Below, piece by piece: positions 26,561-55,119 of a DNA stretch of 64,000 nt. A program made the translations under genes and the position numbers. Each line of letters opens with the position of its first letter. The first letter of the stretch is position 1. Source of the stretch: Candidatus Oxydemutatoraceae bacterium (GTDB taxonomy: Bacteria > Pseudomonadota > Gammaproteobacteria > Poriferisulfidales > Oxydemutatoraceae); contig OZ244717.1 of assembly GCA_965218975.1 (NCBI GenBank), positions 338,347 to 402,346 on the forward strand, written 5' to 3'. Below the pieces are notes generated by a model, which did not search any database, had not been told where the DNA came from, and saw only the letters and a list, made by a program, of their open reading frames with translations.

Positions 26561-27040
26561 GTTTTGTGTTTGGTGGCAGATTGTCGGCGGATTGTGCCGG
26601 ATTATTGGTGGATTGTTGGTAGGTTGTGCCGGATTATTAGCAAAGTGCATGTCGTCCATGACGCGACTGGGTTCTGTCAACAAGCCCCAGCCCCGACATC
26701 CTTGTCGGGTCGTTCGCCGCTGAAAACCGTTCGGTTTTCCGGGCGCGGCTTACCCATGACGCGACTGGGTTCTGTCAACAAGCCCCAGCCCCGACATCCT
26801 TGTCGGGTCGTTCGCCGCTGAAAACCGATCGGTTTTCCGGGCGCGGCTTACCCATGACGAGACTGGGTTCTGTCAACAAGCCCCAGCCCCGACATCCCTG
26901 TCGGGTCGTTCGCCGCTGAAAACCGTTCGGTTTTCCGGGCGCGTCTCACCCGACAACGGACAGAAAGCACCGATCCGAATGTTGCTGCCGAATGCTTCCC
27001 CGGAAGCCCTTCAAGAATCCCATTTAGGGTGGCATCGTAC
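26561..27040 (+). repeat. Mosaic intergenic repeat cluster, copy 1: G/T-rich head, three ~97 bp units, conserved tail
   Basis: The head (26561-26657) has GGATTGT/GGATTAT motifs every 9-12 bp. Units start at 26658, 26755 and 26853. Each contains the hairpins CCCGACA-TCCT-TGTCGGG and GAAAACCG-TT-CGGTTTTC. The tail AAAGCACCGATCCGAATGTT...CCCATTTAGGGTGGCATCGTAC runs 26964-27040. Confidence 0.9.
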
Positions 27041-27166
27041 ATTCTTGACAAGCCCGCCGCTTTCCCCTAACCTGAGCTTAAGTTACGAGGCGCAGGCCTT
27101 ATTCTTTACTCGCCCGCGGGGAGGATCCTCGCGGGGACCTTCCAGCGGTAACAACAGGAGACTATT

Positions 27167-27487: not shown

Positions 27488-27851
27488 TCGTTCGCCGCTG
27501 AAAACCGTTCGGTTTTCCGGGCGCGGCTCACCTGTTTTGTGTTTGGTGGTAGATTGTCGGCGGATTGTGCCGGGTTGTTGGTGGATTGTTGGTAGGTTGT
27601 GCCGGATTATTAGCAAAGTGCATGTCGTCCATGACGAGACTTCGTGCTGTTAATGAACCCCAGCCCCGACATCCTTGTCGGGTCGTTCGCCGCCCGCTAA
27701 AAAAGGTGGCACCGTTCGGTTTTCCGGGGCGCGGCTCACCCATGACGAGACTTGGTTCTGTCAATGAGCCCCAGCCCCGACATCCCTGTCGGGTCGTTCG
27801 CCGCTGAAAACCCCGCTGAAAACCGTTCAGTTTTCCGGGCGCAGCTCACCC
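27488..27851 (+). repeat. Mosaic intergenic repeat cluster, copy 2: partial unit, head, two units, no tail
   Basis: The family and orientation match 26561-27040. The head sequence TGTTTTGTGTTTGGTGGTAGATTGTCGGCGGATTGTGCCGGGTTGTTGG... is followed by CATGACGAGACTT...CCCCGACATCCTTGTCGGG...TTCGGTTTTCCGGG units. Confidence 0.9.
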
Positions 27852-29661: not shown

Positions 29662-29669
29662 AAAACAGA

Positions 29670-32374: not shown

Positions 32375-32725
32375 ACTCGCATTGTAATCAAATAATTTTT
32401 GAACTGTAAAGAAATTGTATAGGCCCGCTATATATCACGCTTAAGTGAATTTTTTTTATCAATGACACGATATGAATTTGAATTTATACACCTTTTTCTA
32501 ATAATACGGCCTTTTTCATATAAAAATGATTGACATCAGGAATAGCGGCTTCCGGAAAAATGAGTCGCTTTCATCGCCAACATGAGCCGTCTAAGAAAGC
32601 CGGAACTTGAACGACGTCAGAGCGGCGACGCCCTTACAAACACCGAAGAGTTTGTAGACTTGATATATAGCAATTCCATCAAACAGATCGTTAAATTTCG
32701 TTGATAAGCGACCTGGTTTCTATAA

Positions 32726-35700
32726 TCACCTTTCCCCGATACGCAATAAACAGGGTAACAGCACTAGCGTAAATAAAGTGCTCAGCAGCAATCCGCCCAC
32801 AATCACCGTCGCTAACCCGCGATAGAGTTCGGCGCCGGCGCCGAATGCCATCAGCAATGGGAGCATGCCGAATAAACTGGTCAATGTGCTCATTAGAATA
32901 GGGCGCAGACGCAAACGAATCGCCTGCCGTACCGCATCGCAACGATTGCAACCGCCGCGTTCCGCCTGACGTGTTTGATGCACTAGCAAAATGGCATTAT
33001 TCACAACCAAACCCAACAGGATGATAAGACCGATCATCGTCAACAAATCCATCGGCTGAAATGTGATGAAATTGACAATTCTTAACAAAATCACACCGCC
33101 GACAGTTGCCAGCGGTAAAACAATCACTACGAATAAGCTATCGCGGAAAGAACGGAATAACACCGCCATCAGCAAATACAGAATTAAGACCGCCAGTGCA
33201 AATGCTTGCGACATACCGGATAGGGCCACTTTTAATTTATCTGCGCTTCCGGTATATGTAATTTCCCCGTCCTCAGGCAATTGTTCGCGCAGAATCGGCT
33301 CGACTCTTTCGCGCAACAATTTCGCCGTTACTTCAAGCGGTAAAAACGGCGGCGAAATCACTTCCAATGTAACGGTGCGACGTCGGTCAAGGCGACGAAT
33401 GCGATTGGGGCCTGCGGTTCGGCTGATTGTAACCAGCTCGCCAAGCGGTACGGTCCCGGCATTTGGCGTCGCCAACGGAACTGCTGCCAATTCCTCAGGA
33501 GTTTTCCAACCGCTGATTCTACCGATAACATCAATCTTCTTGTCGCCGTCAAAGTAATCGGTAATAAACAAACCGTCGCCGATCATACGAGTGAGCAGTC
33601 CCATTGTCGTATAATCCCACCCCACCTCGACAATCCGCTCTTCGCGGGGAAGCAGCGAAATCTGAGATTCCGCCAGTTCGAGTCCCGGTTTCGGGTTGAC
33701 TCTTGCACCGGGGACCTCGCGCATGATTAGACCATAACCGGTATATGCGGCTTGCAATAAACTCTCAATATCGCGCGTTTGTAAGTTCACCTCAACGCTA
33801 CGAGTGTTCCCTTGACTGAATAAAGATGCGATTCGCGCAAATGAGAATGTGTCAGGGAAATCACGAAATACATTCCCGATAATTGATGATAGTTGTTTCA
33901 CTTGACTCGGTATTCGCGCGACCGCGCCCATGAATGCCCCATTGGCAAAGGCGACAAAAAAATAATGTCGTATCGCGGGTTGTTTGTCGCCGATAACATG
34001 CGGCTGTAATTGTTGCGTAACAACCTCCCCCATTTCTTTTTCCAGCGTTGCAAGATTCATCCCCGGTGGCGTCAGTAGAAATGCAAAAACCAAATTGCGA
34101 TTACCCGCGGGCAAATAATCAGCTTTAGGCAGCAATAACCCCGTCAGAACGACCGGCATTAGAAATAACCCGGCAATTAAAATATGTCTGTGTGTCTTCG
34201 CCGCGGTCAAGCGCATCAAGTGTTCCGTAATTCGGTCCCAAACTTTTGCGAATAAATCCGTATTGCACTCTTTATGCAACCACTCCTTGCTCATCGCCGG
34301 AACTAAAATCAGTGCAGCAACCATTGAAGCGGTGACCGCTGCCGACAGCCCGACGGCAAGATCGGCAAACAATTGCCCGGCCTCGTCCTCCAACAAAATA
34401 ATCGGCAGAAAAACCGCCACAGTGGTAATGGTTGATGCGATCAACGCAACCTTGATTTGATCGCTGCCTTCAACCGCCGCTTCGCGCAAGCCACGCCCCG
34501 CTTCACGCAAACGCAAAATATTTTCAATCGCAATAATTGACGCATCCAGCACCATGCCGACTGCTAACGCCAATGCCGCCAGCGAAATCACATTGAGCGT
34601 GCGTCCGGTAATTTGTAATACAATCAATGCGGCAAATAGCGAGATAGGAATGCTAACGGCAACGATCAAAACCGTACGCACACGGCGGGTGAACCACCAC
34701 AATATCGCACCGGCGAGCACAATGCCAAGCAACAAGTTCGTCAATAACACTTCAATCGACTTCTCGATATAAATCGTCTCGTCGTACACTTGCTCCATTT
34801 CGAGTCCGACACGTTTGAGCGGGCCTTCTGCCAATGCGTTTGCCACCTCCCGCAAACGCGCCATCACCTCGATGACATTCACACCGACTTCACGGTACGC
34901 ATTGACCGCTAACGACCCCTCGCCATTGTTGATTACAAATGATTGACGGTCTTCATAATCCGGACGAATATCGGCTATATCGCGTAAACGTACGGGTCTT
35001 CCGTCGCGCCATTCCAGAATCATTTCCGATAAACCGACGATATCAAACGCGCCTTCAAAGCGAATCGTATAACTCCGCCTGCCGATATCTTCCGTTCCGC
35101 CGGAAATATTTTCTTGTCCGGTAATCATCCGTGCCGCCCGCGGTAGGTCTATACCCAAACCGGCCGCTTTATAAGGGTCCACGGAGATTCGAATTTCCTG
35201 CTCCAAACCGCCGCGCACTTCAGATTGCGAAATTCCCCATACCCGTTCAAACCGAGATTGCACCACTTCTTCGACAAATCGTTTGTACTCCGCAATGTTT
35301 TTGTCGTTACCGTGTATCGGCTTGATAATAAACCAAGCGATCGGACGTGCCGCTTCGCCGACAGTGCTTAATATCGGTTCGTCGGCATCAACCGGATAGT
35401 CCGCCACTCGATTCAAGCGATTGAGCACTTCAATCAACGCACGTTCGATGCTGTAACCTAAATCAAATGTCAAAGTAACAGAACCTTGACCACGGCTTGC
35501 TTCCGAAAGCATCGATACGACTCCCGGCAGTCCTTTTAACGCATCTTCTTGCGGCTCAATAATTTCAGACTCGATTTCTTCAGGCGCCGCCGCGCGCCAA
35601 GTCGTTGTAATAGTAATCTCAGGCTTAATAATTTCCGGAGTGAGCTGAATCGGTAATTTAAGCAACATTACAATCCCAAAGGTCATCACTAACAAGAGGA

Positions 35701-35749
35701 TGACATATCCCATAATCGGATTGTCTATTACCGTACGCGTCAGCTTCAT
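32726..35749 (-). CDS. RND efflux transporter, inner-membrane permease subunit (AcrB/CzcA superfamily)
   Basis: The 1007 aa protein has a 12-TM-type organisation with two large periplasmic loops. Typical segments are present (VLDASIIAIENI, LGLVVNNAILLV). A 4 nt overlap links it to the adaptor gene. Confidence 0.85.
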   Translation of the reverse strand: MKLTRTVIDNPIMGYVILLLVMTFGIVMLLKLPIQLTPEIIKPEITITTTWRAAAPEEIESEIIEPQEDALKGLPGVVSMLSEASRGQGSVTLTFDLGYSIERALIEVLNRLNRVADYPVDADEPILSTVGEAARPIAWFIIKPIHGNDKNIAEYKRFVEEVVQSRFERVWGISQSEVRGGLEQEIRISVDPYKAAGLGIDLPRAARMITGQENISGGTEDIGRRSYTIRFEGAFDIVGLSEMILEWRDGRPVRLRDIADIRPDYEDRQSFVINNGEGSLAVNAYREVGVNVIEVMARLREVANALAEGPLKRVGLEMEQVYDETIYIEKSIEVLLTNLLLGIVLAGAILWWFTRRVRTVLIVAVSIPISLFAALIVLQITGRTLNVISLAALALAVGMVLDASIIAIENILRLREAGRGLREAAVEGSDQIKVALIASTITTVAVFLPIILLEDEAGQLFADLAVGLSAAVTASMVAALILVPAMSKEWLHKECNTDLFAKVWDRITEHLMRLTAAKTHRHILIAGLFLMPVVLTGLLLPKADYLPAGNRNLVFAFLLTPPGMNLATLEKEMGEVVTQQLQPHVIGDKQPAIRHYFFVAFANGAFMGAVARIPSQVKQLSSIIGNVFRDFPDTFSFARIASLFSQGNTRSVEVNLQTRDIESLLQAAYTGYGLIMREVPGARVNPKPGLELAESQISLLPREERIVEVGWDYTTMGLLTRMIGDGLFITDYFDGDKKIDVIGRISGWKTPEELAAVPLATPNAGTVPLGELVTISRTAGPNRIRRLDRRRTVTLEVISPPFLPLEVTAKLLRERVEPILREQLPEDGEITYTGSADKLKVALSGMSQAFALAVLILYLLMAVLFRSFRDSLFVVIVLPLATVGGVILLRIVNFITFQPMDLLTMIGLIILLGLVVNNAILLVHQTRQAERGGCNRCDAVRQAIRLRLRPILMSTLTSLFGMLPLLMAFGAGAELYRGLATVIVGGLLLSTLFTLVLLPCLLRIGER

Positions 35750-36882
35750 TGACGTGACTTCAAAGATGGCTGGGAATCGCCTTGCGGCGCATGAAGCGGC
35801 CGTACCGACATCCCTTCGCGTACCCGCTCGGCGCCGCGAATAATCACTTGGTCGCCGATTTTTAATGTGCTGTTGCGCACTTCAATCAAACCATCGCTGG
35901 TGGATACTCCGACTTGTACCGGCACACGTTGCGCCATCTGATCACGAGTCACTCTCATCACGCTCATCCCGGTGTTGCGAATAACCAATGCATCTTCCGG
36001 TACTACCAAACTATTGCGCGGCGATGAAATCGGTACTGCAACGCGCACCAACTGCCGAGCATAACCCGTCGGTATTATCCAATCCAAACGCAACTCAAAC
36101 AGCCGCGATACGCTGTCGGCAACCGGCACAACGGTGCGCAGATTTGCTTGTTGAGCTTGCCCGTTGACCTCGATTATCAACAGGTCGCCTACGGCAACTT
36201 GCGATAGGATGTAGGCAGGGACCGATGTTGTAATTTCCAAACTCTGCGGGTCTGTCAATGCGACAATTTCATCTCCCGCCGACACCCATTCGCCTTCTTC
36301 CGCGTGCCTTTCGTTAATCACTCCGTCAAACGGCGCAACAATGCTCATCCGGCGAAGTAATTCATCCGTCCGTGCCACTCTTGCTTGGTTTGCCGCATAC
36401 ATTGCTCTAGTCGCATCCAAATCGGCCTGCATCTGTTCAAGCCGGCTTAAAGCCGCATTGTTATTTTTCGCAAGTTCGTTAAGACGCCCAACTTCCCTAT
36501 TCAGAAATCCGATGCTTGCTTGCAGGCTAACACTTTCCGCTTTCTGCGCGATCAATTCTTGTTGCAACAATGCATCGTCAAGCCGCACGATGACTTCACC
36601 GCGCTTAAAGTAATCGCCAACTTCCGGTACCGCGATAATCCGCCCGGCATTTTCAGCAGCGATGTCAGCGTGATTGCGACTTATCACACTGCCGCTAAAC
36701 CATAATTGTTCGCGTAATTCCTGCTGTTGCACCGGAGCAAGAATTACCGGCATTGAGGGGACTGCCCCGCCGGGCGGTCCTCCCGGCAGTTGCGCGACAC
36801 TCGACGCTACCGTAAACAACAGCGCCACACAAATCATGCCTGCTGCCGACACACTCAACTTTACTTTTAATATTATTGACAA
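35746..36882 (-). CDS. RND efflux periplasmic adaptor (membrane fusion protein, HlyD family)
   Basis: It has an N-terminal anchor, a coiled-coil hairpin region (LQASIGFLNREVGRLNELAKNNNAALSRLEQMQADLDATRA) and beta-barrel segments. It lies directly upstream of the RND permease. Confidence 0.8.
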   Translation of the reverse strand: MSIILKVKLSVSAAGMICVALLFTVASSVAQLPGGPPGGAVPSMPVILAPVQQQELREQLWFSGSVISRNHADIAAENAGRIIAVPEVGDYFKRGEVIVRLDDALLQQELIAQKAESVSLQASIGFLNREVGRLNELAKNNNAALSRLEQMQADLDATRAMYAANQARVARTDELLRRMSIVAPFDGVINERHAEEGEWVSAGDEIVALTDPQSLEITTSVPAYILSQVAVGDLLIIEVNGQAQQANLRTVVPVADSVSRLFELRLDWIIPTGYARQLVRVAVPISSPRNSLVVPEDALVIRNTGMSVMRVTRDQMAQRVPVQVGVSTSDGLIEVRNSTLKIGDQVIIRGAERVREGMSVRPLHAPQGDSQPSLKSRQ

Positions 36883-37001
36883 CTTACCCTTTGCGTTATT
36901 TGCTTATAGTTTAAACCAAGATCGGACTGTACTCGTTCCTTAGCGGAAGAATAAAATTTTCGACTTAGAATCGGGGCGCTGCCGCCGCAATCCGCGCACT
37001 T

Positions 37002-37751
37002 TTACCAGTAAGCTTCAACCGTGATGTGTCCTGGCGTGCGTCGCCGATTTCTCTCTAACCCCTTCTTGCGCAGAACAGTCATGGTGTCTTTTACCATATC
37101 CGGATTGCCGCAAAGCATCACCTGCGAATCTGCCGTATTGAACCGGCAGCCGGTTCCCGCTTCCAGCGAACCATTCCGAATCGCCGCGGGGATTCTTCCC
37201 GGCAAAGCGAAGTCGCTTTGTTCACGACTAACAAAATGTACCAATGTGAACTGATTCGGGTGTTGCGCGGCAAACTGCCGAAGAATGTCGCGGTAAGAGG
37301 CTTCTTTAATCATTCTTACCGCATGGATAAGAATCACTTTCTCAAACCTTTGCCATGGCGTTGCAGTTTTGAGTATGGATAAAAATGGCCCTATTCCCGT
37401 GCCGGTCGAAATTAACCAAAGATGCTTGCCGTGCGGAATTTCATCAAGAACTAAAAAACCGACGGGCGATTTCGCGACCAAGACCGAATCGCCGGATTGT
37501 AATTCGGCAAGCTTTGAAGACAAGCGGCCGGCGGAAACGACAATGGAATAAAACTCTTTGATCGGATCGCCCGGTGCATTGACATATGAATAGGGGCGAG
37601 CCACCTGCTCTCCGTCAATCATCAACGCCAATTTGCCGAACTGTCCCGCTTGGAACAGATCGGTTTCCACATCCACACGCAGCGAATACAACCGATTTGT
37701 CCAGTGTTTATTCTCGACAACTGTTCCTTCCGCATACTTTGCATTGACCAT
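37002..37751 (-). CDS. fpr: Ferredoxin-NADP+ reductase (Fpr type)
   Basis: The FAD-binding motif is RPYSYVNAP and the NADP-binding motif is WLISTGTGIGPFLSIL. The C-terminal ...HITVEAYW ending and the ~249 aa size fit bacterial Fpr. Confidence 0.85.
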   Translation of the reverse strand: MVNAKYAEGTVVENKHWTNRLYSLRVDVETDLFQAGQFGKLALMIDGEQVARPYSYVNAPGDPIKEFYSIVVSAGRLSSKLAELQSGDSVLVAKSPVGFLVLDEIPHGKHLWLISTGTGIGPFLSILKTATPWQRFEKVILIHAVRMIKEASYRDILRQFAAQHPNQFTLVHFVSREQSDFALPGRIPAAIRNGSLEAGTGCRFNTADSQVMLCGNPDMVKDTMTVLRKKGLERNRRRTPGHITVEAYW

Positions 37752-38136
37752 TTCTTTGTACCGATATTTTTTAAAAACGCATTGTAGTGCAGAATAAATT
37801 ACCTGTCTTTATTACTTAAGGATGAACATACGTTATAGATCAATCGGGTGGATACGGCGTTAGTTGCCGAGCATAATAATCATTGATTGACGTAGAGATT
37901 TTTTCTATAGTACCCGTTACGATTACAATTGTTTGCAAAGGAGAAACGAATGGATATCTATCGCATCACCGCTATTATCGTTGGTCTGTTTATAATGGGC
38001 CTTGCGGTGTATATGGGCATGCACTAAACGCCGCGCTTAATCAATCGCAACCCAATCGCGACCGCTGGTTACCTGCTTCGCAACCGTTTATCGGTTGAGC
38101 TGCCGTCTGTTCCGCCATCTCTGGTAAAACACCCGA

Positions 38137-38673
38137 ATGATGGCATGGCGGCACGCAACACTTGGCTTCACTCTGGTAGAACTATTAATTACATTGACTC
38201 TGATCGCAATTGCATTAAACGGTGCGGTATACGGCTACCGTGACTGGCAGAAACGCACTTTGATTAGCGAACACTTAAACTTGTGGGTCAAGACTTTGCG
38301 CTTTGCTCGCAATTATGCGTTAATTTCAGGTAACGCAACGGTTCTTTGTCCGAGCTCAAGCATTGTCGGATGTAATGGGAACGATTATGCAAAAGGCTGG
38401 TTGGTCTTTGCAGAAAATTCTCATGGCGACGCGGGACGCTACGACAGCGAAGATCGCATCATTGCTCGCTCGGATGCTTGGCATTCCTCGCTAACATTAC
38501 ATAGCAATTTTAAAACGCCGGTGCGGTTTAACTCTTCGGGCAGAACCAATGCCAACGGGCGGTTTGTCCTCTGCATTGATCATGACCCCGGATTAATGCG
38601 CGGAATCTTTTTGATTCGTTCCGGACGGCTGCGTTTGACACGAAGCGGCGAACTCAACGAGTGTTTATCGTGA
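38137..38673 (+). CDS. fimT: Type IV pilus minor pilin, FimT/GspH family
   Basis: The prepilin N-terminus is GFTLVELLITLTLIAIAL. It is the first gene of a minor-pilin operon. ~178 aa. Confidence 0.7.
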   Translation: MMAWRHATLGFTLVELLITLTLIAIALNGAVYGYRDWQKRTLISEHLNLWVKTLRFARNYALISGNATVLCPSSSIVGCNGNDYAKGWLVFAENSHGDAGRYDSEDRIIARSDAWHSSLTLHSNFKTPVRFNSSGRTNANGRFVLCIDHDPGLMRGIFLIRSGRLRLTRSGELNECLS

Positions 38674-39176
38674 CGAACACGGCAAACCGCTTGCAGAAAT
38701 CAACATGCGGATTTGCTTTAGTGGAATTGCTGATCACTATTTTACTGCTAACGGTCGGTGTACTCGGCACTTTACATTTGCAACAATACGCCGCCATGAT
38801 AGAGCGTGATCTGCAATATCGCATTCGCGCAAGCGCCTTAATCGAAGACATCGTCCGCAAGATGGATGCGGCAGAACATCATGCCGATAATTTTTTAACC
38901 GGTTTCGGCGCACCGCCCGCAACTACTAATTGCTGGCAAACAAACTGCGGAGAAACTCAACGTCACCGCTTTCATCTCGCTCATTGGAAATGCCGCTTAG
39001 GGAGATGGCAAAATACAAGCGTTTGCCGCACCCGACTTCGCACTCGCGGATTACTGCCTTACGGTGACGGTGAAATTCAACGCGGCCATCAAACCTTGCG
39101 CATTGCCGTGCGCTGGCATGACAGTCGCCAACAGATACAAACACTGACCCACCATTATGTTCCGTTACATCCTTAG
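38661..39176 (+). CDS. pilV: Type IV pilus minor pilin PilV
   Basis: The prepilin N-terminus is GFALVELLITILLLTVGVLG. It lies between fimT and the pilW-like gene, with overlapping gene boundaries. Confidence 0.7.
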   Translation: MFIVTNTANRLQKSTCGFALVELLITILLLTVGVLGTLHLQQYAAMIERDLQYRIRASALIEDIVRKMDAAEHHADNFLTGFGAPPATTNCWQTNCGETQRHRFHLAHWKCRLGRWQNTSVCRTRLRTRGLLPYGDGEIQRGHQTLRIAVRWHDSRQQIQTLTHHYVPLHP

Positions 39177-40179
39177 CGCCAACAATCCTAAATTCTTAAG
39201 CATTGCGGGCACAGCTCTTCTCGAATGGATACTTGCCTCATTACTCGGGATTTTTCTGATAGTCGCATTAGAACGATTGTTTCAGACGATCGCTACCGAT
39301 CATAGCTTTAGGGAGGCACAATCCGCCGCGATAATAACGTTGGCAGTAACCGAGCAAACCGTCAGTAAACGCTTGCACCTTAGTACCGCGCTTCCTTGCG
39401 GTAACACCCCGGGACAAATCAACCTTGTGAACGACGGAAGCGCTCTCTATTGGCTTGACCTGTTTGCAAGTGCAAAACAAATACATCCCTACGATAGCGA
39501 GGAAGCATCAGCGATTCGTCGCCTCGGCACTGCTGCGGGCGAACGCGCCGCCGGCAGCGATGTATTAGTGATTCTCGCCGCACAACAACCGATTCGGGTT
39601 GTCACACACAATGTTGAAGAGGGCATATTAGTTTTAGCCGAAGCTTCCTTATTGCGGCCCGGTGAATTTGCGATCGTCTGCGACCCGCAAGTAACCGCGT
39701 TATTCCAAATCACCCGGCAATTTGATCAAGGGCAGCGATTGGCATATCGTGGTGGCGGCGTGTCGCCGGGCAATTGTGCAAACGATTTTGATATAAATCG
39801 GCCGTGTGCCCCGAACACTGCTTACATATTTTCCGACCACGCCTTGCTCACGGTGTTTGAACCGGCTGTTCTGTTTGTCGGGCAATCGCATCATCCCGGT
39901 CGTCGTTCACTTTATCGCGAACGGCTCAGTCTGACTCAATCCGGCGATGGCAACATTCGTGCCGGCATGCGCCGCGAGGAAATTATTGAAGGTGTTGAAA
40001 TTCTGCGTGCCCGCTCGCTAAGCGATAACGTGGTTGATTTTGGAATTGTCGCCGCCGCTCCATTACCGGTTGCCGACCTAACGCCCGCTTCCGTTCATTT
40101 GCTTGGCAGGGATGTTACATCATGGCTATCCGACCACGGAAGCTTATATGACGTAACGGAGTTCAGCGTTGCACTATAA
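39157..40179 (+). CDS. pilW: Type IV pilus assembly protein PilW-like
   Basis: The 340 aa protein has an N-terminal hydrophobic segment (TALLEWILASLLGIFLIVAL). The call rests on its position and size in the pilV-pilW-pilX order. Confidence 0.55.
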   Translation: MFRYILSANNPKFLSIAGTALLEWILASLLGIFLIVALERLFQTIATDHSFREAQSAAIITLAVTEQTVSKRLHLSTALPCGNTPGQINLVNDGSALYWLDLFASAKQIHPYDSEEASAIRRLGTAAGERAAGSDVLVILAAQQPIRVVTHNVEEGILVLAEASLLRPGEFAIVCDPQVTALFQITRQFDQGQRLAYRGGGVSPGNCANDFDINRPCAPNTAYIFSDHALLTVFEPAVLFVGQSHHPGRRSLYRERLSLTQSGDGNIRAGMRREEIIEGVEILRARSLSDNVVDFGIVAAAPLPVADLTPASVHLLGRDVTSWLSDHGSLYDVTEFSVAL

Positions 40180-40591
40180 ATATTTCATTGACCAATGTTT
40201 GGCGTATCCTCATTCGAAAACTCGTGGCAGTAGCCTGATTATTACTTTAGCATTACTGTTGATTTTGACACCTTTAGCGCTCGGCAGCATGTACCGATTG
40301 CAATATCAGTCTCAAACCTTATATGCGCTAGACAACAAACGCCGCCTGCAAACCGAAGTCAGGCAGCAACTCGTTCTAGCCGCCGCAATTGCGCAGACGC
40401 TGCCGGCAAATATCTCAGTAGCCAATTCAAATTGGCAAATCACCGCCTTAGCCAATACCGCCTCAACTCAAACCATCAGTTATTTTCAGCTCAGCGGGCA
40501 AGTTGAAAATGCTTCCGGTCGCGTTACCGCTCACGCCCTGTACCGACGCGGCATTGATCCGGCAATACGGATGTTTCAGTTTGCTCAATAG
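40169..40591 (+). CDS. PilX-like minor pilin (by position)
   Basis: The 140 aa protein has an N-terminal hydrophobic helix (SSLIITLALLLILTPLALG). It overlaps the pilW stop. Confidence 0.45.
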   Translation: MHYKYFIDQCLAYPHSKTRGSSLIITLALLLILTPLALGSMYRLQYQSQTLYALDNKRRLQTEVRQQLVLAAAIAQTLPANISVANSNWQITALANTASTQTISYFQLSGQVENASGRVTAHALYRRGIDPAIRMFQFAQ

Positions 40592-41006
40592 CTCGAATAA
40601 CGCGAAATACGGTTGCCGTATTGCAGCCTTCTCTTTGCTTGAACTGCTGTTTGCAATGGTCATCAGCGCCATTATTTTATCGTTGGCGATCAACACTTAT
40701 GATCGTTATCAAATAAAAATTCAATATTTAGACGGGCGCAATAAACTGCTTGAAATCATGCAGAAACAGCATCACCATTTTGCCGAACATTTAACTTTCA
40801 CCGACCAACTCGAATCTCTAGGGTTTTCCTCGATTGATCATGCCGTCTTATCCGATCACCAACATTTTCGCATCCGTGCCGCACCTTGCCAAACCGTGAT
40901 TGCTCAATGTGTCCGCTTAACCGCAACTGCAACCGATCCCACAAACGATGTTGACACTTTAACTTTGGACTCCATGGGGCGCCGAACTCCAGCAGATATC
41001 TGGTAG
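40581..41006 (+). CDS. Minor pilin, PilE/FimU-like
   Basis: The prepilin-like N-terminus is AAFSLLELLFAMVISAIILSLAI. The likely TTG start at 40581 is in frame with the listed ORF 40503-41006. Confidence 0.55.
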   Translation: MLNSSNNAKYGCRIAAFSLLELLFAMVISAIILSLAINTYDRYQIKIQYLDGRNKLLEIMQKQHHHFAEHLTFTDQLESLGFSSIDHAVLSDHQHFRIRAAPCQTVIAQCVRLTATATDPTNDVDTLTLDSMGRRTPADIW

Positions 41007-41070
41007 ATTGAACAAGTGAAAACAGGATTTATTAGTTTAAGGTAATTGCTTAATTTTTTATATATTTTGC

Positions 41071-41144
41071 ACGATGCCACCCTAAATGGGATTCTTGAAT
41101 AGCTTCGGGGGAAGCGTTCGGCAGAAAGCACCGATCCGAATGTT
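41071..41144 (+). repeat. Solo fragment of the mosaic-repeat tail: the arm is inverted relative to loci 26964-27040 and 52470-52546, and the core is in the same orientation
   Basis: ACGATGCCACCCTAAATGGGATTCTTGAA..GCTTCGGGGGAAGCGTTCGGCAG is the reverse complement of the tail arm. It is followed by the shared core AAAGCACCGATCCGAATGTT. Confidence 0.85.
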
Positions 41145-41162
41145 ATGGTCCTATACATATTG

Positions 41163-41191
41163 TTGACATGCTGTTGTAAAGTCAATATACT
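41163..41191 (+). promoter_or_regulatory. Sigma70-type promoter (TTGACA, 17 nt spacer, TATACT) upstream of the lipoprotein gene
   Basis: A perfect -35 lies at 41163-41168 and a near-consensus -10 at 41186-41191 with exactly 17 nt between them. The element is 85 nt upstream of the ATG at 41277. Confidence 0.6.
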
Positions 41192-41276
41192 TTGACGCAA
41201 ACCAAACAAGATGGCGCAACGCTTAGTGGCGTTACGGCGTTTAATAAAATACCCCGAATTCGAAGGAATGTAAGAT

Positions 41277-42803
41277 ATGAAAGAAATAACCCCGCGTCGT
41301 TTCCAGCGTGCCAGATTAACCGCCTTTCTCCTAATCAGCGGCTTTGCGTTAAGCGGTTGTTTTGATTCGGGCGGAAGCGGTTCAAGCGGCGCTTCGGTTG
41401 AGCGGTTTTTATACACGAGTAGCAATAGCAGTAGCGGGAATGAAATTATACGGATGGGTATTGCTTCCGACGGCACACTCAGTAGTAGCACCGTAACTCG
41501 AATACCGACCCATGGTTTTGGCGATGCCGACGATGACGACTTTGACGGGCAACATTCGTTGCATATCGTGCATAATTATCTGCTTGCCGTCAATGCCGGG
41601 GAAGATCCTGCATTTTCGGACATGAAATTTAATGGCGAGTTTGCCGCTCGCACCAGCGGCAACGGAACTATATCGGTATTTCGTTTTGAAGATGACGCTT
41701 TAACCCAAGTGCCGCAGGGAGAGGATTCTGCAAGCAGTAATGTGGAGTCGCACGGAATCAGACCGGTGAGTCTGACATCGGCAATAATCGACGATGTAAC
41801 ATGGGTATTAGTCGCAAACCAATACGACAATCCATTTTGTAAGTGGTTTGACGGCAAGGAGCCGCAATGTCCTGCTATTCCGTCGCCGCGTGAGGATGAC
41901 AAACCGAGTATTGATGCGTTTAAATTCAATCCCGAGGACGGACAATTGACTTATTCCGGCGAAATGGACCTTTTTAATTTCGGCGACAACGGCGGGCCGT
42001 CACAAGTTTCTTTTAGTCCGGACCGGAGCAAAGTTGCGGCAACGATGTGGGGAATACCGTTTCTAAGTTCCACAGGAGTGGAAACGATAGATATATTGCG
42101 GAGTACAACTGTCAATACTTTCCGTGAAGGTGGGGTGTTCGTATGGGATGTGGAAGTACAGGATTCCACTCAGGGTTCCAATTTGATGCTTATCAAGCGC
42201 CGCTTTTGGTTTGAACCGGGGGTTTCGGGTAGTATCGGGTTTGTTTGGAGTCCGGATAGCCGGTATCTTTATGTAACAAACTTCAATGTCCCGATCAACG
42301 GGGATAGGAACTTCAGCGTAGTTTCGTTGGAAGATACGTCTTCGGAACTGACTCCTGTCGATCAGTCGGGAACACGCGACAATGACGGCGCGATGCAGGT
42401 GCGACATGCCGATGAGGCCTGTTGGGCATGGCTTGAACCCGACGGGAGCAGGCTTTATACGGCAAGTTTTAGCGGAAACATCGTGTCGTTCTTTGACGTG
42501 ACACCCGAGACCGGCATGATTGATCACAATTCGTATTATCCTCGTCGTGACCAAGCGCTCCCATTTCCGATCGCTCCTTCTTTAAGAATATCCGAAGCTC
42601 CGGATACAAAGGATATTTACGTTTTATCGAACGGAACATTTCTCTATGTTTCCGGCGCATTAAATTCGCACACGATTTCAATTTATGCGGTGAACAGCAA
42701 GGGAACTTTAGTGGAAATAAATTCCTCGCCGTTTAGCGTCCCGTTTCCGGATGCAAGGACGGATAAGCGCGAAGAAGCATTTTTGGGTCTTGTCGGCTAC
42801 TAA
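41277..42803 (+). CDS. Lipoprotein with a beta-propeller (lactonase-like 7-bladed) repeat pattern
   Basis: The lipobox is LISGFALSGC. Recurrent blade-like segments are present (TISVFRFEDD, VSFSPDRSKV, VWSPDSRYLYVTNF, DGSRLYTASFSGNIVSFFDV, FLYVSGALNSHTISIYAV). Confidence 0.65.
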   Translation: MKEITPRRFQRARLTAFLLISGFALSGCFDSGGSGSSGASVERFLYTSSNSSSGNEIIRMGIASDGTLSSSTVTRIPTHGFGDADDDDFDGQHSLHIVHNYLLAVNAGEDPAFSDMKFNGEFAARTSGNGTISVFRFEDDALTQVPQGEDSASSNVESHGIRPVSLTSAIIDDVTWVLVANQYDNPFCKWFDGKEPQCPAIPSPREDDKPSIDAFKFNPEDGQLTYSGEMDLFNFGDNGGPSQVSFSPDRSKVAATMWGIPFLSSTGVETIDILRSTTVNTFREGGVFVWDVEVQDSTQGSNLMLIKRRFWFEPGVSGSIGFVWSPDSRYLYVTNFNVPINGDRNFSVVSLEDTSSELTPVDQSGTRDNDGAMQVRHADEACWAWLEPDGSRLYTASFSGNIVSFFDVTPETGMIDHNSYYPRRDQALPFPIAPSLRISEAPDTKDIYVLSNGTFLYVSGALNSHTISIYAVNSKGTLVEINSSPFSVPFPDARTDKREEAFLGLVGY

Positions 42804-42844
42804 AAGTGAGTCTTTTCGGAAGAAAAGATATAACTTAATAGGCA

Positions 42845-43585
42845 ATGCGCAACGCATTATTTTTGCTCGGTGTGGTACTGATGCTCGCGTTCGTTTGGAA
42901 TCGGATGCTACCCTCCGCATCTGAAAGTGGTGCGGAGAAAAACGGGCACAACCACGCGACAGCAAAAATGTCCGCTCCCACTATGATTCTTACGGCATCG
43001 GATGAAAAAGTGTCCGATTTGTCCGATGCAAAAGCGGTTCCGTCGCGGCAACTATTCCCTCGTTCAATGATTGAAGCTGAATGGCAAATTTCCGAGGAGA
43101 TTATTCCTTGGCTTGGCACTTTCGGCCCTTTCTCCAGAGAAGAACTCCGACAGTTTGCTTCAAACCCAAGCTTTATTCCGCGTTTTCTCGAGATTGGGCT
43201 TTCGGACAAGGAGGTACGCCCTGCAGATATCGGTCAAGGAGCAGAACAAAGAAGAAAAGTTCATTTTCGACACAACGCTTTACCGCAGTCTCGGGACGCT
43301 GCGATACCGCCTGATTTTCCAATCGATCAAAAAAGAATTTATGCTCACTTTACATATCACAACCTCCCGCATGATCAGGTGCTGGTCAAATGGAGCGAGT
43401 CGGCGGAAAATGGGGAAGTGTTGTTGTTTAAGCGATATCCGCTGATTACTTCAAATCAGCATCATTATGTTTGGTTTGATAAAGACGCTCCATGGGACCC
43501 GGGCGTTTATCGCGTTGAGATATTTTCCGCAGATGCCGACCTAACGGCGCTTGCGGCAGGAACTTATACGGTAAACGTTAATTAG
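42845..43585 (+). CDS. Hypothetical membrane-anchored protein
   Basis: It has an N-terminal TM helix (ALFLLGVVLMLAFVW). No recognisable motifs were seen. Confidence 0.5.
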   Translation: MRNALFLLGVVLMLAFVWNRMLPSASESGAEKNGHNHATAKMSAPTMILTASDEKVSDLSDAKAVPSRQLFPRSMIEAEWQISEEIIPWLGTFGPFSREELRQFASNPSFIPRFLEIGLSDKEVRPADIGQGAEQRRKVHFRHNALPQSRDAAIPPDFPIDQKRIYAHFTYHNLPHDQVLVKWSESAENGEVLLFKRYPLITSNQHHYVWFDKDAPWDPGVYRVEIFSADADLTALAAGTYTVNVN

Positions 43586-43682
43586 TTAATTGCATAGATC
43601 ACTTATCCTGTCGGACCCCATGAAGAAACCTGCATACTAGTGAAAAACTTTACATCGCTATAGAATGCTTGTCGGAGGCACC

Positions 43683-44420
43683 ATGAAACGTACGCTCATA
43701 CTCTTATTTATATTGCTTGTTTCGTCCGTCGCTTACGCGAAGGGAAGCGCCGTGCTTTACAAGGTTAACGGACAGTCTTATGAAGGCTATTTCGTGATGC
43801 CGTCTCCCGGCGCGCCGCTGGTGTTGCTCATCCACGATTGGGACGGTTTGACCGATTATGAAATCCGTCGTGCCGAGATGCTTGCCGGGATGGGGTATGC
43901 AGTGTTTGCAGCCGACCTGTTCGGGGCAGGAGTACGACCGTCCGAACTTGCCGATAAACGCCGGCACACCGGCGAGTTGTACGCAGACCGCAAGAAAATG
44001 CGTGCTGTACTACAAGGCGCGCTCAACACCGCCCAAGCGAAAGGCGCCAGCGTTCGCAACGCTGTGGCAATAGGCTACTGTTTCGGCGGGGCTGCCGTGC
44101 TTGAGCTGGCAAGATCAGGCGCGGCGCTCAAGGGATTTGTTACTTTCCACGGCGGCTTGAGCACCCCGCCTGGGCAAGGGTATGCCGACACTAAGGGAAA
44201 GCTGCTGATCCTGCACGGCACAGCAGATACTATCATCACGATGGATCAGTTTGCCGCACTCGGTAGCGAGCTGGAAAAAGCGAACGTTGACCACGAAATG
44301 ATCACGTACGGCGGCGCGCCGCATGGGTTTACTGTATTCGGCTCAAATAACTATCGGGAAGACGCCGATAGAAAGTCATGGCGACGGTTTTCGAAGTTTT
44401 TGGTTGATACGCTGGGATGA
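43683..44420 (+). CDS. Dienelactone hydrolase family protein (secreted)
   Basis: A signal peptide is followed by LLIHDWDGLTDY, the nucleophile motif GYCFGG, and a late HG..D / APHGF pattern. A GGAGG RBS precedes the ATG at 43683; the listed ORF starts at 43665. Confidence 0.8.
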   Translation: MKRTLILLFILLVSSVAYAKGSAVLYKVNGQSYEGYFVMPSPGAPLVLLIHDWDGLTDYEIRRAEMLAGMGYAVFAADLFGAGVRPSELADKRRHTGELYADRKKMRAVLQGALNTAQAKGASVRNAVAIGYCFGGAAVLELARSGAALKGFVTFHGGLSTPPGQGYADTKGKLLILHGTADTIITMDQFAALGSELEKANVDHEMITYGGAPHGFTVFGSNNYREDADRKSWRRFSKFLVDTLG

Positions 44421-44844
44421 CGAACGTACTAGATATTTAAAAATATACACCGAGAGAATCTAAAATATATTAAATGGCGTCGTGCCGGTTCCGTCCGAAG
44501 AAATAACGGATGCCAATCTCGGTTATTCACCGTCTTTGGACTTCGTTTTTATCCCACGGCACATCGGAGAGGAAATAACGGATGCCAAGCTCGGTGATTC
44601 ACCGGGAATACGGTAATGATAGATTGGCTTACATTAGAGTCACCACAGAGTCACCACTAACTCATGGAGGGGCATTTTCCTTGTCGCAGGCTGCACAATT
44701 CACTAAGAATGCCGTCGCCGGATTGTGGCTGATCTTCTCCCACAAATTGAACACTATGCGAAGGGAAGCTCGGTGCAAAATAGCTCCGGAGGAAACGAAC
44801 CTCCCGAATAATCGGCCGTGTCTCCTTGAAGTTCAAATCAGAAA

Positions 44845-47433
44845 ATGCCGCACCTTTTTGAAGCATTAGAACATTCTGCTGCCAGCTGGCGTAAGAAGGG
44901 TTATCCTTGTGACGCCTATCCGCTCATAGGCGAAATTCTTGCTTACCAAACGGAAAAGCAGGAGGACAGGTCAACCCCGAAGTTTCTGCGCGAACCCCAA
45001 TTCCTTGCCTTGGAGGTTTACTGGTATATCCGCCTTATACGGGAAACCCCTCATATCATAGACCTTTACAAGCATTATCACGGCAGCAATAAAGAAGATT
45101 TTTTTGATGCGCTTGGAATCTCAGTATCAAGAGATGCTTTGGAGTTTGCAGAAATAGACGGAATGATTGAAAAAATTAAAAGGGATGAGGGTTTTGTCAA
45201 AGACAAAAGAATTCAAGCGTTGCACGAAGCCGTCAAATTAGACTATCCGAGCTACATTTTTGCTTTGGCTATGGGTGCGGGCAAAACCGTTCTGATAGGG
45301 ACGATTATCGCAACCGAGTTTGCAATGTCGCTGCGTTATCCCAAAGATAGATTTATGAAAAATGCCCTCGTTTTTGCTCCGGGCACGACAATCATAGAAA
45401 GTTTGCGCGAACTCAGCGATATATCTTATGAGCAGATTTTGCCGCCCGGCCTTAACCGCGATTTCCTTGCTAATTTGAAGATTGAATTTCCGGGCAAGGA
45501 AAAAGACATACAGGCGCAGAGAAACAGCAGTTATAACTTGATTGTTACCAATGTTGAAAAAATCAACCTGCGTGCCAGGCAGCGGGAGAATCAAACACAA
45601 TTATCTTTTGAACACGAAGAAGCACAGGCGAATCTACGGCTTCAAAAGATCGCAAGCCTGCCCGGCCTCGGGGTTTTTTCAGATGAAGCGCACCACACAT
45701 ACGGAAACACCTTTGACAAACTCAAACGCGTGAGGGAAACCATCAACTACATACACGAGCAGACTGAAATAGTGGCGGTGATCAACACCACCGGAACGCC
45801 TTACTATAAAAAGCAACCCTTAAAGGAGGTGGTTGTCTGGTACGGGCTTGGCGACGGCATCAAAGATAATATCCTCAAAGGCCTCAATAACGGCATTCAT
45901 CTATACGATATCGGAGAGCAGCCGGAGGAAGAGGTTTTTAGGGACATCATTCGAGAATTTTGGGAGGGCTACGGAAATGTTTCTCTTCCCAACGGCGCAC
46001 CGGCAAAGATTGCCTTTTATTTCAAAACGCAACAGCATCTGGTAAGTTCAAAACAACAAATAGAGAAGGCGATGACGGAAATCGGGCAACCTGTTTCCCA
46101 TATATTAGTTAATACACAACAATCCGATGCAGCGCAGATCGACGAGTTTAAGCGTCTCAATAATCCCGAAACCCAGAAGCGAGTTATTCTGTTGATCGGC
46201 AAAGGGGTTGAAGGTTGGAACTGCCCCAGCCTGTTTTCCTGCGCACTGATAAAGGAGCAGACGAGTAAGAATTACGTTTTGCAAGCATCAACGAGATGTT
46301 TGCGGCAGGTTCCGGGCAATAGCCTTCCGGCGAAGATATTTCTAGATTCCGTCAACGCAACGATTCTAGACAAAGAATTACAAAATAACTTCGGCACCGA
46401 TCTTGATAGACTTAGCGGGGAAACGGGAGACAAAGAAACCATCACTCTGCGTATTCTTAAAACAGAACTGCCGAAACTGGAAATCACCCGCACTGTTAAA
46501 AGAGCTATAAGAAAAGGGGAAATAAACAGAAATATACGTTTGGAGAAACCGAAGGCGCAAAAACTGCCCGTTGTATTGCGCAGCATTTGCACCCCTGATT
46601 TCAGCGGTCCAAAGGAAATATTAATGCCGACAGGACAAACGAAGGAGCTACCGGCGGGAAGACGTGTTACCGGTTGCCATACTGCCGCTTGGAGAATCGC
46701 TTCACGATACCATGTACCGGTTCTACCGATCTTGAAAAAACTCAAAAGCTTTTATCCGAAAGGAGTAATGCCGGATAGTCATTTATACGGGCTTTTTCAG
46801 CAGGTTGAACGGCAACAAACAAGTTACACAACGGTTGAAGAAAAAGTAACCGAGGCGATGGCGTTGATCCGAGTTCAGGATGAGAACGGAGAAGGCATCT
46901 TTGATAAGGATGAAAAGGGGGTTTTTGTTCACCGTTTGCGGTTGCTTAAAAGGACTGTTGAACGTATGGAAGAAGGCGGATTGTTTGCAGAGAGGGAAAA
47001 TTATGAGGACCAGCACGAGTTGAGTTTTCACTATACCCCCTACAACTTTGACAGCAAACCGGAACGTTCCCTGTTCCGAAGGATTTTATCCATGTTGAAT
47101 ACAGAACCTTATGACGTGGAAGTGTTTCTGTTCACCGGTGGGCTAACAGACCCGAAGAAAACTGATTTCCATTTTGAATATCTGGGCGAAGACAAGCGGT
47201 ATCATCGCTACTTTCCGGATTTTGTGATTGCCAAAAAGACCGGTGAGTTTTATATTGTCGAGGTGAAAGAAGATAAGCGCGAGGATAAAACTGTGGAGGC
47301 CAAGAAAAAGGCAGTTGAGAAACTGCAGAATTTGCCAACGAACAAGTTCGGATACCATATTATCTATGCTTCTACAGCGACGCTAGGCGTGAGAGAAACC
47401 ACGCCGATTCAGAATTGGATACAAAAAAACTAA
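44845..47433 (+). CDS. Type III restriction enzyme Res-like subunit (SF2 DEAH helicase plus C-terminal PD-(D/E)xK nuclease)
   Basis: Walker A is ALAMGAGKTVLIG and the DEAH box is VFSDEAHHTYG. The helicase C-terminal part includes QASTRCLR. The C-terminal nuclease motif is YFPDFVIAKKTGEFYIVEVKEDK. Confidence 0.8.
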   Translation: MPHLFEALEHSAASWRKKGYPCDAYPLIGEILAYQTEKQEDRSTPKFLREPQFLALEVYWYIRLIRETPHIIDLYKHYHGSNKEDFFDALGISVSRDALEFAEIDGMIEKIKRDEGFVKDKRIQALHEAVKLDYPSYIFALAMGAGKTVLIGTIIATEFAMSLRYPKDRFMKNALVFAPGTTIIESLRELSDISYEQILPPGLNRDFLANLKIEFPGKEKDIQAQRNSSYNLIVTNVEKINLRARQRENQTQLSFEHEEAQANLRLQKIASLPGLGVFSDEAHHTYGNTFDKLKRVRETINYIHEQTEIVAVINTTGTPYYKKQPLKEVVVWYGLGDGIKDNILKGLNNGIHLYDIGEQPEEEVFRDIIREFWEGYGNVSLPNGAPAKIAFYFKTQQHLVSSKQQIEKAMTEIGQPVSHILVNTQQSDAAQIDEFKRLNNPETQKRVILLIGKGVEGWNCPSLFSCALIKEQTSKNYVLQASTRCLRQVPGNSLPAKIFLDSVNATILDKELQNNFGTDLDRLSGETGDKETITLRILKTELPKLEITRTVKRAIRKGEINRNIRLEKPKAQKLPVVLRSICTPDFSGPKEILMPTGQTKELPAGRRVTGCHTAAWRIASRYHVPVLPILKKLKSFYPKGVMPDSHLYGLFQQVERQQTSYTTVEEKVTEAMALIRVQDENGEGIFDKDEKGVFVHRLRLLKRTVERMEEGGLFAERENYEDQHELSFHYTPYNFDSKPERSLFRRILSMLNTEPYDVEVFLFTGGLTDPKKTDFHFEYLGEDKRYHRYFPDFVIAKKTGEFYIVEVKEDKREDKTVEAKKKAVEKLQNLPTNKFGYHIIYASTATLGVRETTPIQNWIQKN

Positions 47434-49007: not shown

Positions 49008-49022
49008 GTAGGAGTCGGATGA

Positions 49023-51810: not shown

Positions 51811-51911
51811 AAGGGTTATATACCTGACTTCGCGTACCGCCGGCGTCGGCGGATCTGGCCGCAGGCGATCCGCCATAGAATCAAACGCCTGCGTCGGGTG
51901 AATCTCGGTAG

Positions 51912-52546
51912 CTTTGTGTTCGGTGTGGGGTTGTCGGTGGATTGTGCCGGATTGTCGGCGGATTGTTGGCGGATTGTTGGCAAAGTGCCTGTCGTCCATG
52001 ACGCGACTTAGTTCTGTCAACAAGCCCCAGCCCCGACGTCCTTGTCGGGTCGTTCGCCGCTGAAAACCGTTCGGTTTTCCGGGCGCGTCTCACCCTGTCG
52101 TCCATGGCGAGACTTGGTTCTGTCAATGAACCCCAGCCCCGACGTCCTTGTCGGGTCGTTCGCCGCTGAAAACCGTTCGGTTTTCCGGGCGCGTCTCACC
52201 CGTTTTGTGTTTGGTAGCAGATTATTGGCAAAGTGCTTGGTGCAGGTTTGTCGGCGGATTGTGCCGGGTTGTTGGCAAAGTGCCTGTCGTCCATGACGAA
52301 ACTTAGTTCTGTCAATAAACTCCAGCCCCGACATCCTTGTCGAGTCGTTCGCCGCTGAAAACCAGTAGGTTTTCCGGGCGCGGCTCACCCAGCCCCGACA
52401 TCCTTGTCGGGTCGTTCGCCGCTGAAAACCGATCGGTTTTCCGGGCACGTCTCACCCGGCAACGGACAGAAAGCACCGATCCGAATGCTACTGCCGCACG
52501 CTTCCCCAGAAGCTCTTCAAAAATCCCATTTAGGGTGGCATCGTAC
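51912..52546 (+). repeat. Mosaic intergenic repeat cluster, copy 3: head, two units, second head, full and truncated units, tail
   Basis: The family and orientation match 26561-27040. The tail AAAGCACCGATCCGAATGCT...CCCATTTAGGGTGGCATCGTAC runs 52470-52546. It is followed by TTGGCA (52553-52558), a 17 nt spacer and TATATT (52576-52581). Confidence 0.9.
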
Positions 52547-52745
52547 ACGGTGTTGGCAAGTGTTGTCGTTTAATGTATATTAGCAACCTGCTACAGCACT
52601 ACGTGTCCGCCCTGTCGGGCGGCCCGTGAATATAAAACCGTTCGAAAATAAGCGGGAATACTTCTTTACGTAGTGTTTGTAGCAATCGCCTGACTCCTTA
52701 AGTCAGGCGATTAAGCAGATTTAATTTAATCTATGGAGAAATATA

Positions 52746-54824: not shown

Positions 54825-54860
54825 TCAGTGTATGCTGCTTTAAGAGAGACCTGCGCAAGT

Positions 54861-55119
54861 GTTTTTGTGTGGGTCACTCTCGGCCGGAGGCAAAGTGCTT
54901 AGTCCAGGTTTGTCGGCGGGTTGTGCCGGGTTGTTGGCAAAGTACATGTCGTCCTTGACGAGACTTGGTGCTGTCAATGAACTCCAGCCCCGACGTCCTT
55001 GTCGAGTCGTTCGCCGCTGAAAACCAGTAGGTTTTCCGGGCGCGTCTCACCCAGCCCCGACGTCCTTGTCGAGTCGTTCGCCGCTGAAAACCAGTAGGTT
55101 TTCCGGGCGCGTCTCACCC
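54861..55119 (+). repeat. Mosaic intergenic repeat cluster, copy 4: head, one full and one truncated unit, no tail
   Basis: The family and orientation are the same. The CAGCCCCGACGTCCTTGTCGAGTCGTTCGCCGCTGAAAACCAGTAGGTTTTCCGGGCGCGTCTCACCC sequence is present twice. Confidence 0.9.

Follow-up and report, generated by a model that had tools for sequence, protein, structure and literature searches.

A mosaic intergenic repeat of a poorly sampled gammaproteobacterium, with an arm-inverted copy ahead of a lipoprotein gene

How did one copy of an intergenic repeat come to carry its arm reversed and on the opposite side of its core, and does this layout point to a recombination switch, a decayed mobile element, or a single accident? 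The copy in question is an 80-base repeat piece (41068-41144) upstream of a lipoprotein gene, in the 64-kb stretch of DNA analyzed here (hereafter the window). The analysis also documents a mosaic intergenic repeat family in a poorly sampled gammaproteobacterium, with one rearranged copy adjoining a strong promoter.

Arm and Core at Three Loci

The window contains exactly three matches to the core, AAAGCACCGATCCGAATG(T/C)T, each of them on the + strand; none of 100 shuffles reached that number. We number the loci by core start: locus 1 at 26964, locus 2 at 41125, and locus 3 at 52470 (Table 1). Profile searches with nhmmer found no further arms or cores in the window beyond these three of each. 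Loci 1 and 3 are paralogous over 160 nt, both lie at the ends of repeat clusters, and in both a 12-nt linker (GRCAACGGACAG) precedes the core and the arm follows it. Locus 2 consists of arm and core only, without a cluster, and here the core is flipped relative to the arm or, equivalently, the arm is placed mirror-wise across the core. The sequence-only reading had already reported the arm as a reverse complement on the other side of the core, and our alignments bore this out, with complementarity of 54/60 positions (90%) to locus 1 and 52/57 (91%) to locus 3, and a blastn E-value of about 1e-16 against the other arms. The arm start given there, 41071, was 3 nt too far in; homology begins at 41068 (TGCACGATG).

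At locus 2 the outer terminus of the arm, 5'-TGCACGATGCC, lies at 41068 and the inner end, CGGCAG, adjoins the core; the same inner end faces the core at every locus, whichever side the arm is on. Together with the preceding CAG, the core of locus 2 forms a 23-nt stretch (41122-41144) identical to that of locus 1 (26961-26983; 23/23), and locus 3 matches both at 22/23 positions, its core carrying one T>C change. Identical runs between the inverted arms reach 29 nt for loci 1 and 2 and 23 nt for loci 2 and 3. A short inverted repeat, CGG(A)CAG ... CTGCCG, brackets the core, which read from the sequence has 5 of 10 symmetric pairs and no dyad of the type used by recombinases.

Table 1. Repeat features of the window and the neighboring lipoprotein gene.
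Feature	Position	Strand	Description
Repeat cluster A	26561..26951	+	GGATTGT iterations, then 98-nt tandem units with two hairpins
Usual copy 1	26952..27041	+	Linker d 26952-26963, core 26964-26983, arm 26984-27041; 3' end of cluster A
Repeat cluster B	27488..27851	+	Without linker-core-arm tail; start 93% identical to start of cluster A
Arm, locus 2 (58 nt)	41068..41125	-	Reverse-complemented, before core; 90-91% match; nhmmer E 1.4e-21
Core, locus 2	41125..41144	+	AAAGCACCGATCCGAATGTT
Sigma-70-type promoter-like site	41163..41191	+	TTGACA-17-TATACT; 11/12 consensus; 18 nt after core
Lipoprotein gene (508 aa)	41277..42803	+	Lipobox LSGC; beta-propeller lactonase family
Repeat cluster C	51901..52457	+	Two sub-clusters
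Usual copy 3	52458..52547	+	Linker d 52458-52469, core 52470-52489, arm 52490-52547; 3' end of cluster C
Repeat cluster D	54858..55119	+	Without tail; 92% identical to second half of cluster C; directly upstream of yaaA

Placed side by side, the two arrangements do describe a long inverted repeat around the core, as had been proposed, and the implied palindrome would measure about 136 nt. No remnant of a second arm was detectable at any of the three window loci (all p > 0.06), the linker remnant sought after the locus-2 core was not significant (p = 0.22), and no target-site duplication was present in the flanks (41058-41067 and the DNA after 41144, 27041, and 52547). The module boundaries are sharp and free of remnants, consistent with a rearranged copy.

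Repeat Clusters and Copies Beyond the Window

Each cluster opens with GT-rich iterations of GGATTGT and continues with 98-nt units in tandem, which contain two hairpins (CCCCGACATCCTTGTCGGG and GCCGCTGAAAACCGTTCGGTTTTCCGGGCGCGGC); linker, core, and arm come after the cluster at loci 1 and 3. Clusters A-D and locus 2 draw on these five modules (GT-rich iterations, 98-nt units, linker, core, and arm) in different combinations, and such variable combination of several modules, with clusters B and D lacking the tail, is a hallmark of mosaic repeats. The clusters also pair up in X-Y-X layouts (26561-27693 and 52227-55119). The start of cluster A and cluster B (93% identical, period 973 nt) enclose a tail and the gene for a 69-aa membrane protein; the second sub-cluster of C and cluster D (92% identical, period 2662 nt) enclose a tail and the gene for a 671-aa exported repeat protein. 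From their layout, both pairs look like cassettes that may have been integrated or duplicated via the clusters.

We looked for copies outside the window by translating the repeat in both directions and searching protein databases for called ORFs that cross it. In the forward frame this recovered P0159 (..SFAAENRSVFRARLT-LHRPHV-GNGEKAPVRM-LLPNASPEALQESHLGWHRT, then HSITG..). The reverse frame recovered P0160 (MIPHLKKIL, then YDATLNGIFEALREKRSV-VTFGLMLSV-RWW-VRRAWKADRFSAANDPTRTSGL..), P0161, with the same layout as P0160, and P0162, an ORF of the cluster only. All four lie on the 2,081,000-nt source contig, which also encodes P0001, 100% identical to the lipoprotein, and none of the four is encoded within the window. 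The three extra arm copies (P0159, P0160, and P0161) all have the usual order, cluster-linker-core-arm. The core-arm family thus has at least six copies on one contig, at least five in the usual arrangement and one, locus 2, flipped, which disposes of the caveat in the sequence-only reading that the similarity might be restricted to three loci. Full copies with both arms (arm'-core-arm), which that reading had suggested looking for, did not turn up: all three extra copies are one-armed, and none of the six known copies is two-armed, a count that draws on the 64 kb of DNA in the window and, for the three extra copies, on the amino-acid sequences of called ORFs, such that flipped or two-armed copies in uncalled regions would escape it. 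In all six copies homology stops at one arm terminus (..CATCGTRCA), with unrelated DNA beyond. The core itself varies elsewhere, as an I>V change in P0159 implies GATC>GGTC.

Beyond this contig, the best conserved 20-mer of the arm had no matches in species-representative genomes, JGI metagenomes, or viral contigs. A cluster 20-mer had none in metagenomes and two isolated matches of about 20 nt in genomes, and a core 18-mer matched twice, both times in one viral sequence otherwise unlike the repeat; we judged both pairs of matches to be due to chance. Searches of plasmids and phages (blastn) and of the literature (repeat sequence strings) returned nothing. The nearest relatives, at 50-73% protein identity and with common synteny only at yaaA-mpl, carry no such repeats. 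Apparently, this mosaic intergenic repeat family is undescribed and restricted to its lineage. In the public annotation of the source genome, P0159-P0162 appear as ORFs of 72-142 aa; they are largely translated repeat clusters and almost certainly spurious genes. Because the repeats generate such ORFs, knowledge of the family is useful for annotation.

Promoters and the Lipoprotein Gene

The promoter-like site downstream of locus 2 had been described as perfect. Its sequence, spacing, and 18-nt distance from the core were as reported, and at 11 of 12 consensus positions the adjective is slightly generous. The site lies outside the repeated sequence, as 41145-41213 has no significant similarity to the other loci. 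At locus 1 a TTGACA begins 3 nt after the arm, followed by a poor -10 element, and no promoter was called there by the scan; at locus 3 TTGGCA-17-TATATT (52553-52581) begins 5 nt after the arm. All three window copies are therefore followed within 3-18 nt by a -35-like hexamer and within 126-199 nt by a gene for a membrane or exported protein. We dropped the idea that the promoters are part of the repeat, given that all three lie outside it and only that of locus 3 resembles a cluster junction (p about 0.005, uncorrected). The repeat is close to promoters; a regulatory role would be conjecture.

The cluster 98-nt units contain a 9-mer, TGTCAACAA (e.g., at 26674-26682), that reads TTGTTGACA on the - strand, and TTGTTGACA is also the -35 region of the lipoprotein promoter (41160-41168). 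With this 9-mer common to both, the clusters may carry outward-facing -35 boxes on their - strand.

The lipoprotein gene reported at 41277 was confirmed: its product starts MKEITPRRFQRARLTAFLLISGFALSGC and the lipobox reads ..ALSGC. It forms a conserved two-gene module (41277-43585) with a 246-aa gene at 42845-43585. In a relative with 50% identity (L003 10001-12231) the module lies between clpP and tig on the opposite strand, which makes it accessory and, in evolutionary terms, mobile.

Sequence Constraint and a Possible Reading Frame

Conservation is uneven along the repeat. In the proximal arm, loci 1 and 3 differ at 6 of 33 nt, compared with 5 of 127 nt over the rest; the distal 25 nt of the arm do not vary among the three window copies. 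This better conservation of the core and distal arm hints at constraint. Read in the frame of an ATG inside the core, the arm gives MLLP(N/H)ASPEALQ(E/K)SHLGWHRT (26979-27041, 52485-52547, and 41068-41124 on the - strand). Sorted by codon position 1/2/3 in this frame, the 10 substitutions that separate the window arms number 4/0/6, a pattern to be read against a probability of about 0.05 that any one codon phase is empty. P0159 and back-translated P0160 and P0161 largely preserve the corresponding peptide, xNGQKAPIRMLLPNASPEALQ(E/K)SHLGWHRT. The arm-frame ORF continues into different, unrelated DNA at each of the loci, its ATG is missing at locus 2, no convincing ribosome-binding site precedes the ORF, and the repeat-encoded peptides have no Pfam match. 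The codon-phase signal is an unexplained lead, possibly the relic of a coding end or chance, and we do not take it as a sign of function.

A structured RNA was considered and dropped, as Rfam searches of 40900-41300 stayed empty up to E <= 10, those of the other loci gave hits at chance level only, and neither repeat half folded better than its shuffled counterparts (z from -0.7 to +0.8). The sole conserved small hairpin in the repeat is GCTTC-NNNN-GAAGC, with its variable base in the loop. A sigma-54 promoter and a dif/Xer site in the arm or core were likewise rejected on reading the sequence.

Possible Origins of the Flipped Copy

We assign a probability of roughly 0.5 to the reading that 41068-41144 is a solitary rearranged 3'-terminal module of lineage-specific mosaic intergenic repeats of the BIME/NIME/REP kind. 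In keeping with this reading, the family is intergenic, combines distinct modules variably, and has at least six core-arm copies on the contig. The usual form is a REP-like hairpin cluster leading into the 12-nt linker, the 20-nt core, and the 58-nt arm with its fixed terminus, and locus 2 would have arisen once, by an illegitimate or template-switch-type rearrangement at the sharp core boundaries, with the short inverted repeat around the core (CGG(A)CAG/CTGCCG) as part of the proposed template-switch setting. A loop bracketed by a short inverted repeat is the classic substrate for template switching at quasipalindromes, which yields either a flipped loop or an inverted copy that is extended and sharply bordered. 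The core resembles such a loop in being bracketed in this way; the second stem or linker to be expected is, however, undetectable at locus 2, so a template switch is a mechanism that we infer. We do not think that a dedicated switch lies behind locus 2, and the fragment presumably has no function of its own. Three observations sit less easily with this reading: the core and distal arm are better conserved than the proximal arm, the avoidance of one codon phase (4/0/6) is not predicted by a purely passive repeat, and precise junctions on both sides of the core are also expected from site-specific recombination. Because the inverted arms contain identical runs of 29 and 23 nt, rare RecA-dependent inversion of the 14-kb or 11-kb interval between them could occur, and such an inversion would swap no promoter.

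Of the origins put forward in the sequence-only reading, site-specific inversion at the core can be excluded on logical grounds. With all three cores in direct orientation, it cannot give the layout of locus 2, and recombination between two inverted full copies, be it homologous through the arm or site-specific at the core, would restore arm' then core', never arm' followed by a forward core. An invertible switch would also have inverted recombination sites and an adjacent recombinase gene, whereas 3 of 3 cores are on the + strand and no such gene was found among the scanned ORFs of the 64-kb window; inverted arms are present, yet recombination between them would not create the observed layout. 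Decay of a two-armed MITE, also put forward there, is unsupported, as neither a second-arm nor a linker remnant was detectable, target-site duplications are absent, each locus has a single terminus, and the three extra copies on the contig are one-armed in the usual order. In a broader form, a REPIN- or MITE-like progenitor would have been a palindromic unit of about 136 nt with termini 5'-TG..CA-3', each copy having since lost one arm. Long palindromes are unstable, which suits such losses, as do the meeting of the same inner arm end with the core on either side and the conservation of the outer 25 nt of the arm, the best conserved part, which ends in TG/CA like transposon termini. REP singlets have, moreover, been argued to be remnants of REP doublets (PMC3116915). 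We nevertheless regard this progenitor as unlikely. None of the six known copies is two-armed or has two inverted units at one locus, the window loci hold no trace of a lost arm or target-site duplication, and the scanned ORFs of the window include neither a Y1 nor a DDE transposase with matching ends. The loss would have hit the same arm in five of the six copies, all of which have the same linker and cluster in its place; this points to a single one-armed ancestor from which they were copied.

Recombination at the core does remain viable in another form, as integration or excision between direct cores. The segment 26984-41124 (14.1 kb) could have been integrated through a palindromic attP (arm'-core-arm) recombining with a chromosomal core, making locus 1 B-O-P' (attL-like) and locus 2 P-O-B' (attR-like) in lambda notation; in a symmetric version, 41145-52489 (11.3 kb) was inserted into a chromosomal palindrome. 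Direct cores would then split a defence and surface-protein island into excisable cassettes, served by a recombinase encoded elsewhere. The identical direct 23-nt repeats at the two segment ends (23/23), with inverted arms just inside them, are what such an element should show, as are the sharp core boundaries without remnants. The intervals hold accessory genes (restriction-modification systems, PDC-M19, and a type III methyltransferase), and the lipoprotein pair stands elsewhere, between clpP and tig, in the 50%-identity relative. Several facts make this history quite unlikely all the same. There is no integrase in 27042-41067 or 41145-52469, nor a recombinase elsewhere in the window; the 14.1-kb interval holds a housekeeping-looking RND efflux pump and the minor-pilin operon; the "attL" form is seen in at least five copies and the "attR" form in only one; locus 3 has no partner in the next 11.4 kb; and the core has neither a recombinase-type dyad (5/10 pairs) nor an invariant sequence (GATC>GGTC in P0159). 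That an unrecognised cassette-shuffling system, acting in trans, uses the 20-23-nt core as its crossover site we consider a long shot. If it did, the 14.1-kb and 11.3-kb units could each excise as a circle, the circle or the chromosome would carry the 136-nt palindromic site (arm'-core-arm), the empty site would read ..CAACGGACAG-core-ATGGTCCTATAC (linker-core-ATGGTCC), and the coding-like conservation seen in the arm would stem from a read-out ORF or from constraint by protein binding, either of them tied to that system. Direct cores serving as recombination sites would amount to a new way of organizing defence and surface-protein cassettes without a linked integrase. An integron attC site was rejected, as the junctions (GTTGCTG, GCTACTG, and GTTATGG) are not GTTRRRY and an IntI gene is absent, and so was a tRNA-type att site, as the window has no tRNA gene. 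It is also very doubtful that the module has an orientation-independent or outward-reading function, whether (a) the core and a distal arm box, ATCCCATTTAGGGTGGCAT, are putative protein-binding sites upstream of envelope-protein promoters, or (b) the core ATG opens a short conserved frame, MLLPNASPEALQ(E/K)SHLGWHRT.., that runs out through the arm. The position of all three window copies 3-18 nt before a -35-like hexamer and near membrane or exported-protein genes, the conservation of core and distal arm over proximal arm, the 4/0/6 substitutions, and the peptide kept in P0159, P0160, and P0161 are consistent with one or the other. The arm box, however, keeps no fixed distance from the promoter (by coordinates, about -55 for loci 1 and 3 but about -115 for locus 2), the promoter of locus 1 failed the scan, the codon-phase signal is marginal (P about 0.05), and the frame lacks a convincing ribosome-binding site, a Pfam match, a common tail across loci, and, at locus 2, its ATG.

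Comparison With Known Repeat Systems

Like the BIMEs of Escherichia coli, which are built from REP sequences, the repeats described here are intergenic composites of short modules, including strong hairpins, in variable combinations, with single modules in either orientation and no gene of their own. According to PMC2817692, the REPs of BIMEs alternate in orientation at regular spacing; the cluster units here are, in contrast, direct tandem 98-nt copies, they share no sequence similarity with BIMEs, and no RAYT gene was seen. REPINs consist of two inverted repeats and a short spacer that form a hairpin, and their single-repeat copies are seen as immobile remnants (PMC3116915; Bertels and Rainey, 2011), the concept that underlies the MITE-like origin proposed earlier. 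Our repeats differ in having no doublet, arms of 58 nt where REPIN units are palindromes of roughly 20-40 nt, and no significant fold in either half; no RAYT (Y1) transposase was found by Pfam among the scanned window ORFs.

In Neisseria, arrays of NIMEs (dRS3) and Correia elements flank surface-protein and restriction-modification genes and could promote cassette exchange. The X-Y-X layouts of clusters around the 69-aa and 671-aa genes are similar in this respect. NIMEs are bounded by 20-bp dRS3 inverted repeats, and Correia elements are complete units with terminal inverted repeats and a TA duplication; neither kind of boundary is found here. The likeness to lambda-type attL/attR lies in a direct common core with differing flanks at the two ends of a segment, and the differences in the lack of an integrase gene, would-be arms that are mirror images, and copy classes of 5:1.

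Genomic Context of the Window

Locus 2 lies between a minor-pilin operon (38137-41006) and the lipoprotein gene, in a window that as a whole looks like a defence island. Besides a DndA/SspA-like gene, PDC-M33, and PDC-M19, it holds a TdeIII restriction-modification pair, a type III methyltransferase, and an EcoRI relic, and housekeeping genes follow from yaaA (55181) on (mpl, fadE, fadA, and fadB). In such an island the repeat family is useful for judging rearrangement hot spots. The nearby invertase or tyrosine recombinase that the sequence-only reading had suggested seeking was not found, and the ORFs scanned in the 64-kb window likewise included no serine recombinase, integrase, or Y1 transposase; tRNA genes are also absent from the window. 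Its only transposase gene is of the IS1595 type (16906-17826, - strand), 24 kb from locus 2, and the ends of this element were rejected as a source of the arm, as they do not match it. The gene, for a DDE transposase, is tight against a DNA methylase gene, and no terminal inverted repeats are recognisable around it. A 210-nt relic (25782-25991), 79% identical to its 3' end, lies 9 kb away and adjoins methylase and EcoRI fragments.

Several other features of the window were recorded. A CRISPR array (10750-15981) comprises 73 repeats of 36 nt (Rfam CRISPR-DR16) and contains internal blocks that are 100% identical (12480-12661 = 14352-14533; 13269-13568 = 13917-14216). Upstream of it is a cas set (48-10243) encoding Cas3 (helicase and HD domain), GSU0053/GSU0054 family proteins, and a Cas4-Cas1 fusion. 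The 3' end of a gene for an 862-aa helicase-nuclease with a TnsA-like endonuclease domain is duplicated 1.58 kb downstream (47137-47268 vs. 48716-48848, 85-95% identity), with PDC-M19A/B-like defence genes between the two copies. Cumulative GC skew reaches its minimum at about 41 kb (about 40000-42000), at locus 2, where the gene strand switches; skew tracks gene strand except in the + strand pilin operon, where C>G, and a replication origin or inversion scar was dropped as a reading of the minimum. Two Sel1-repeat genes (30575-32374) show 108-nt periodicity and an 83%-identical duplication of 300 nt, and in the gene for the 671-aa exported protein (52824-54640) a unit of about 369 nt is repeated five times in tandem. 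The 5' leader of this 671-aa gene (52614-52702) has a sub-threshold Rfam match to sRNA-Xcc1 (24 bits vs. a gathering threshold of 53; E 0.13) and also holds a strong hairpin, AATCGCCTGACT..AGTCAGGCGATT.
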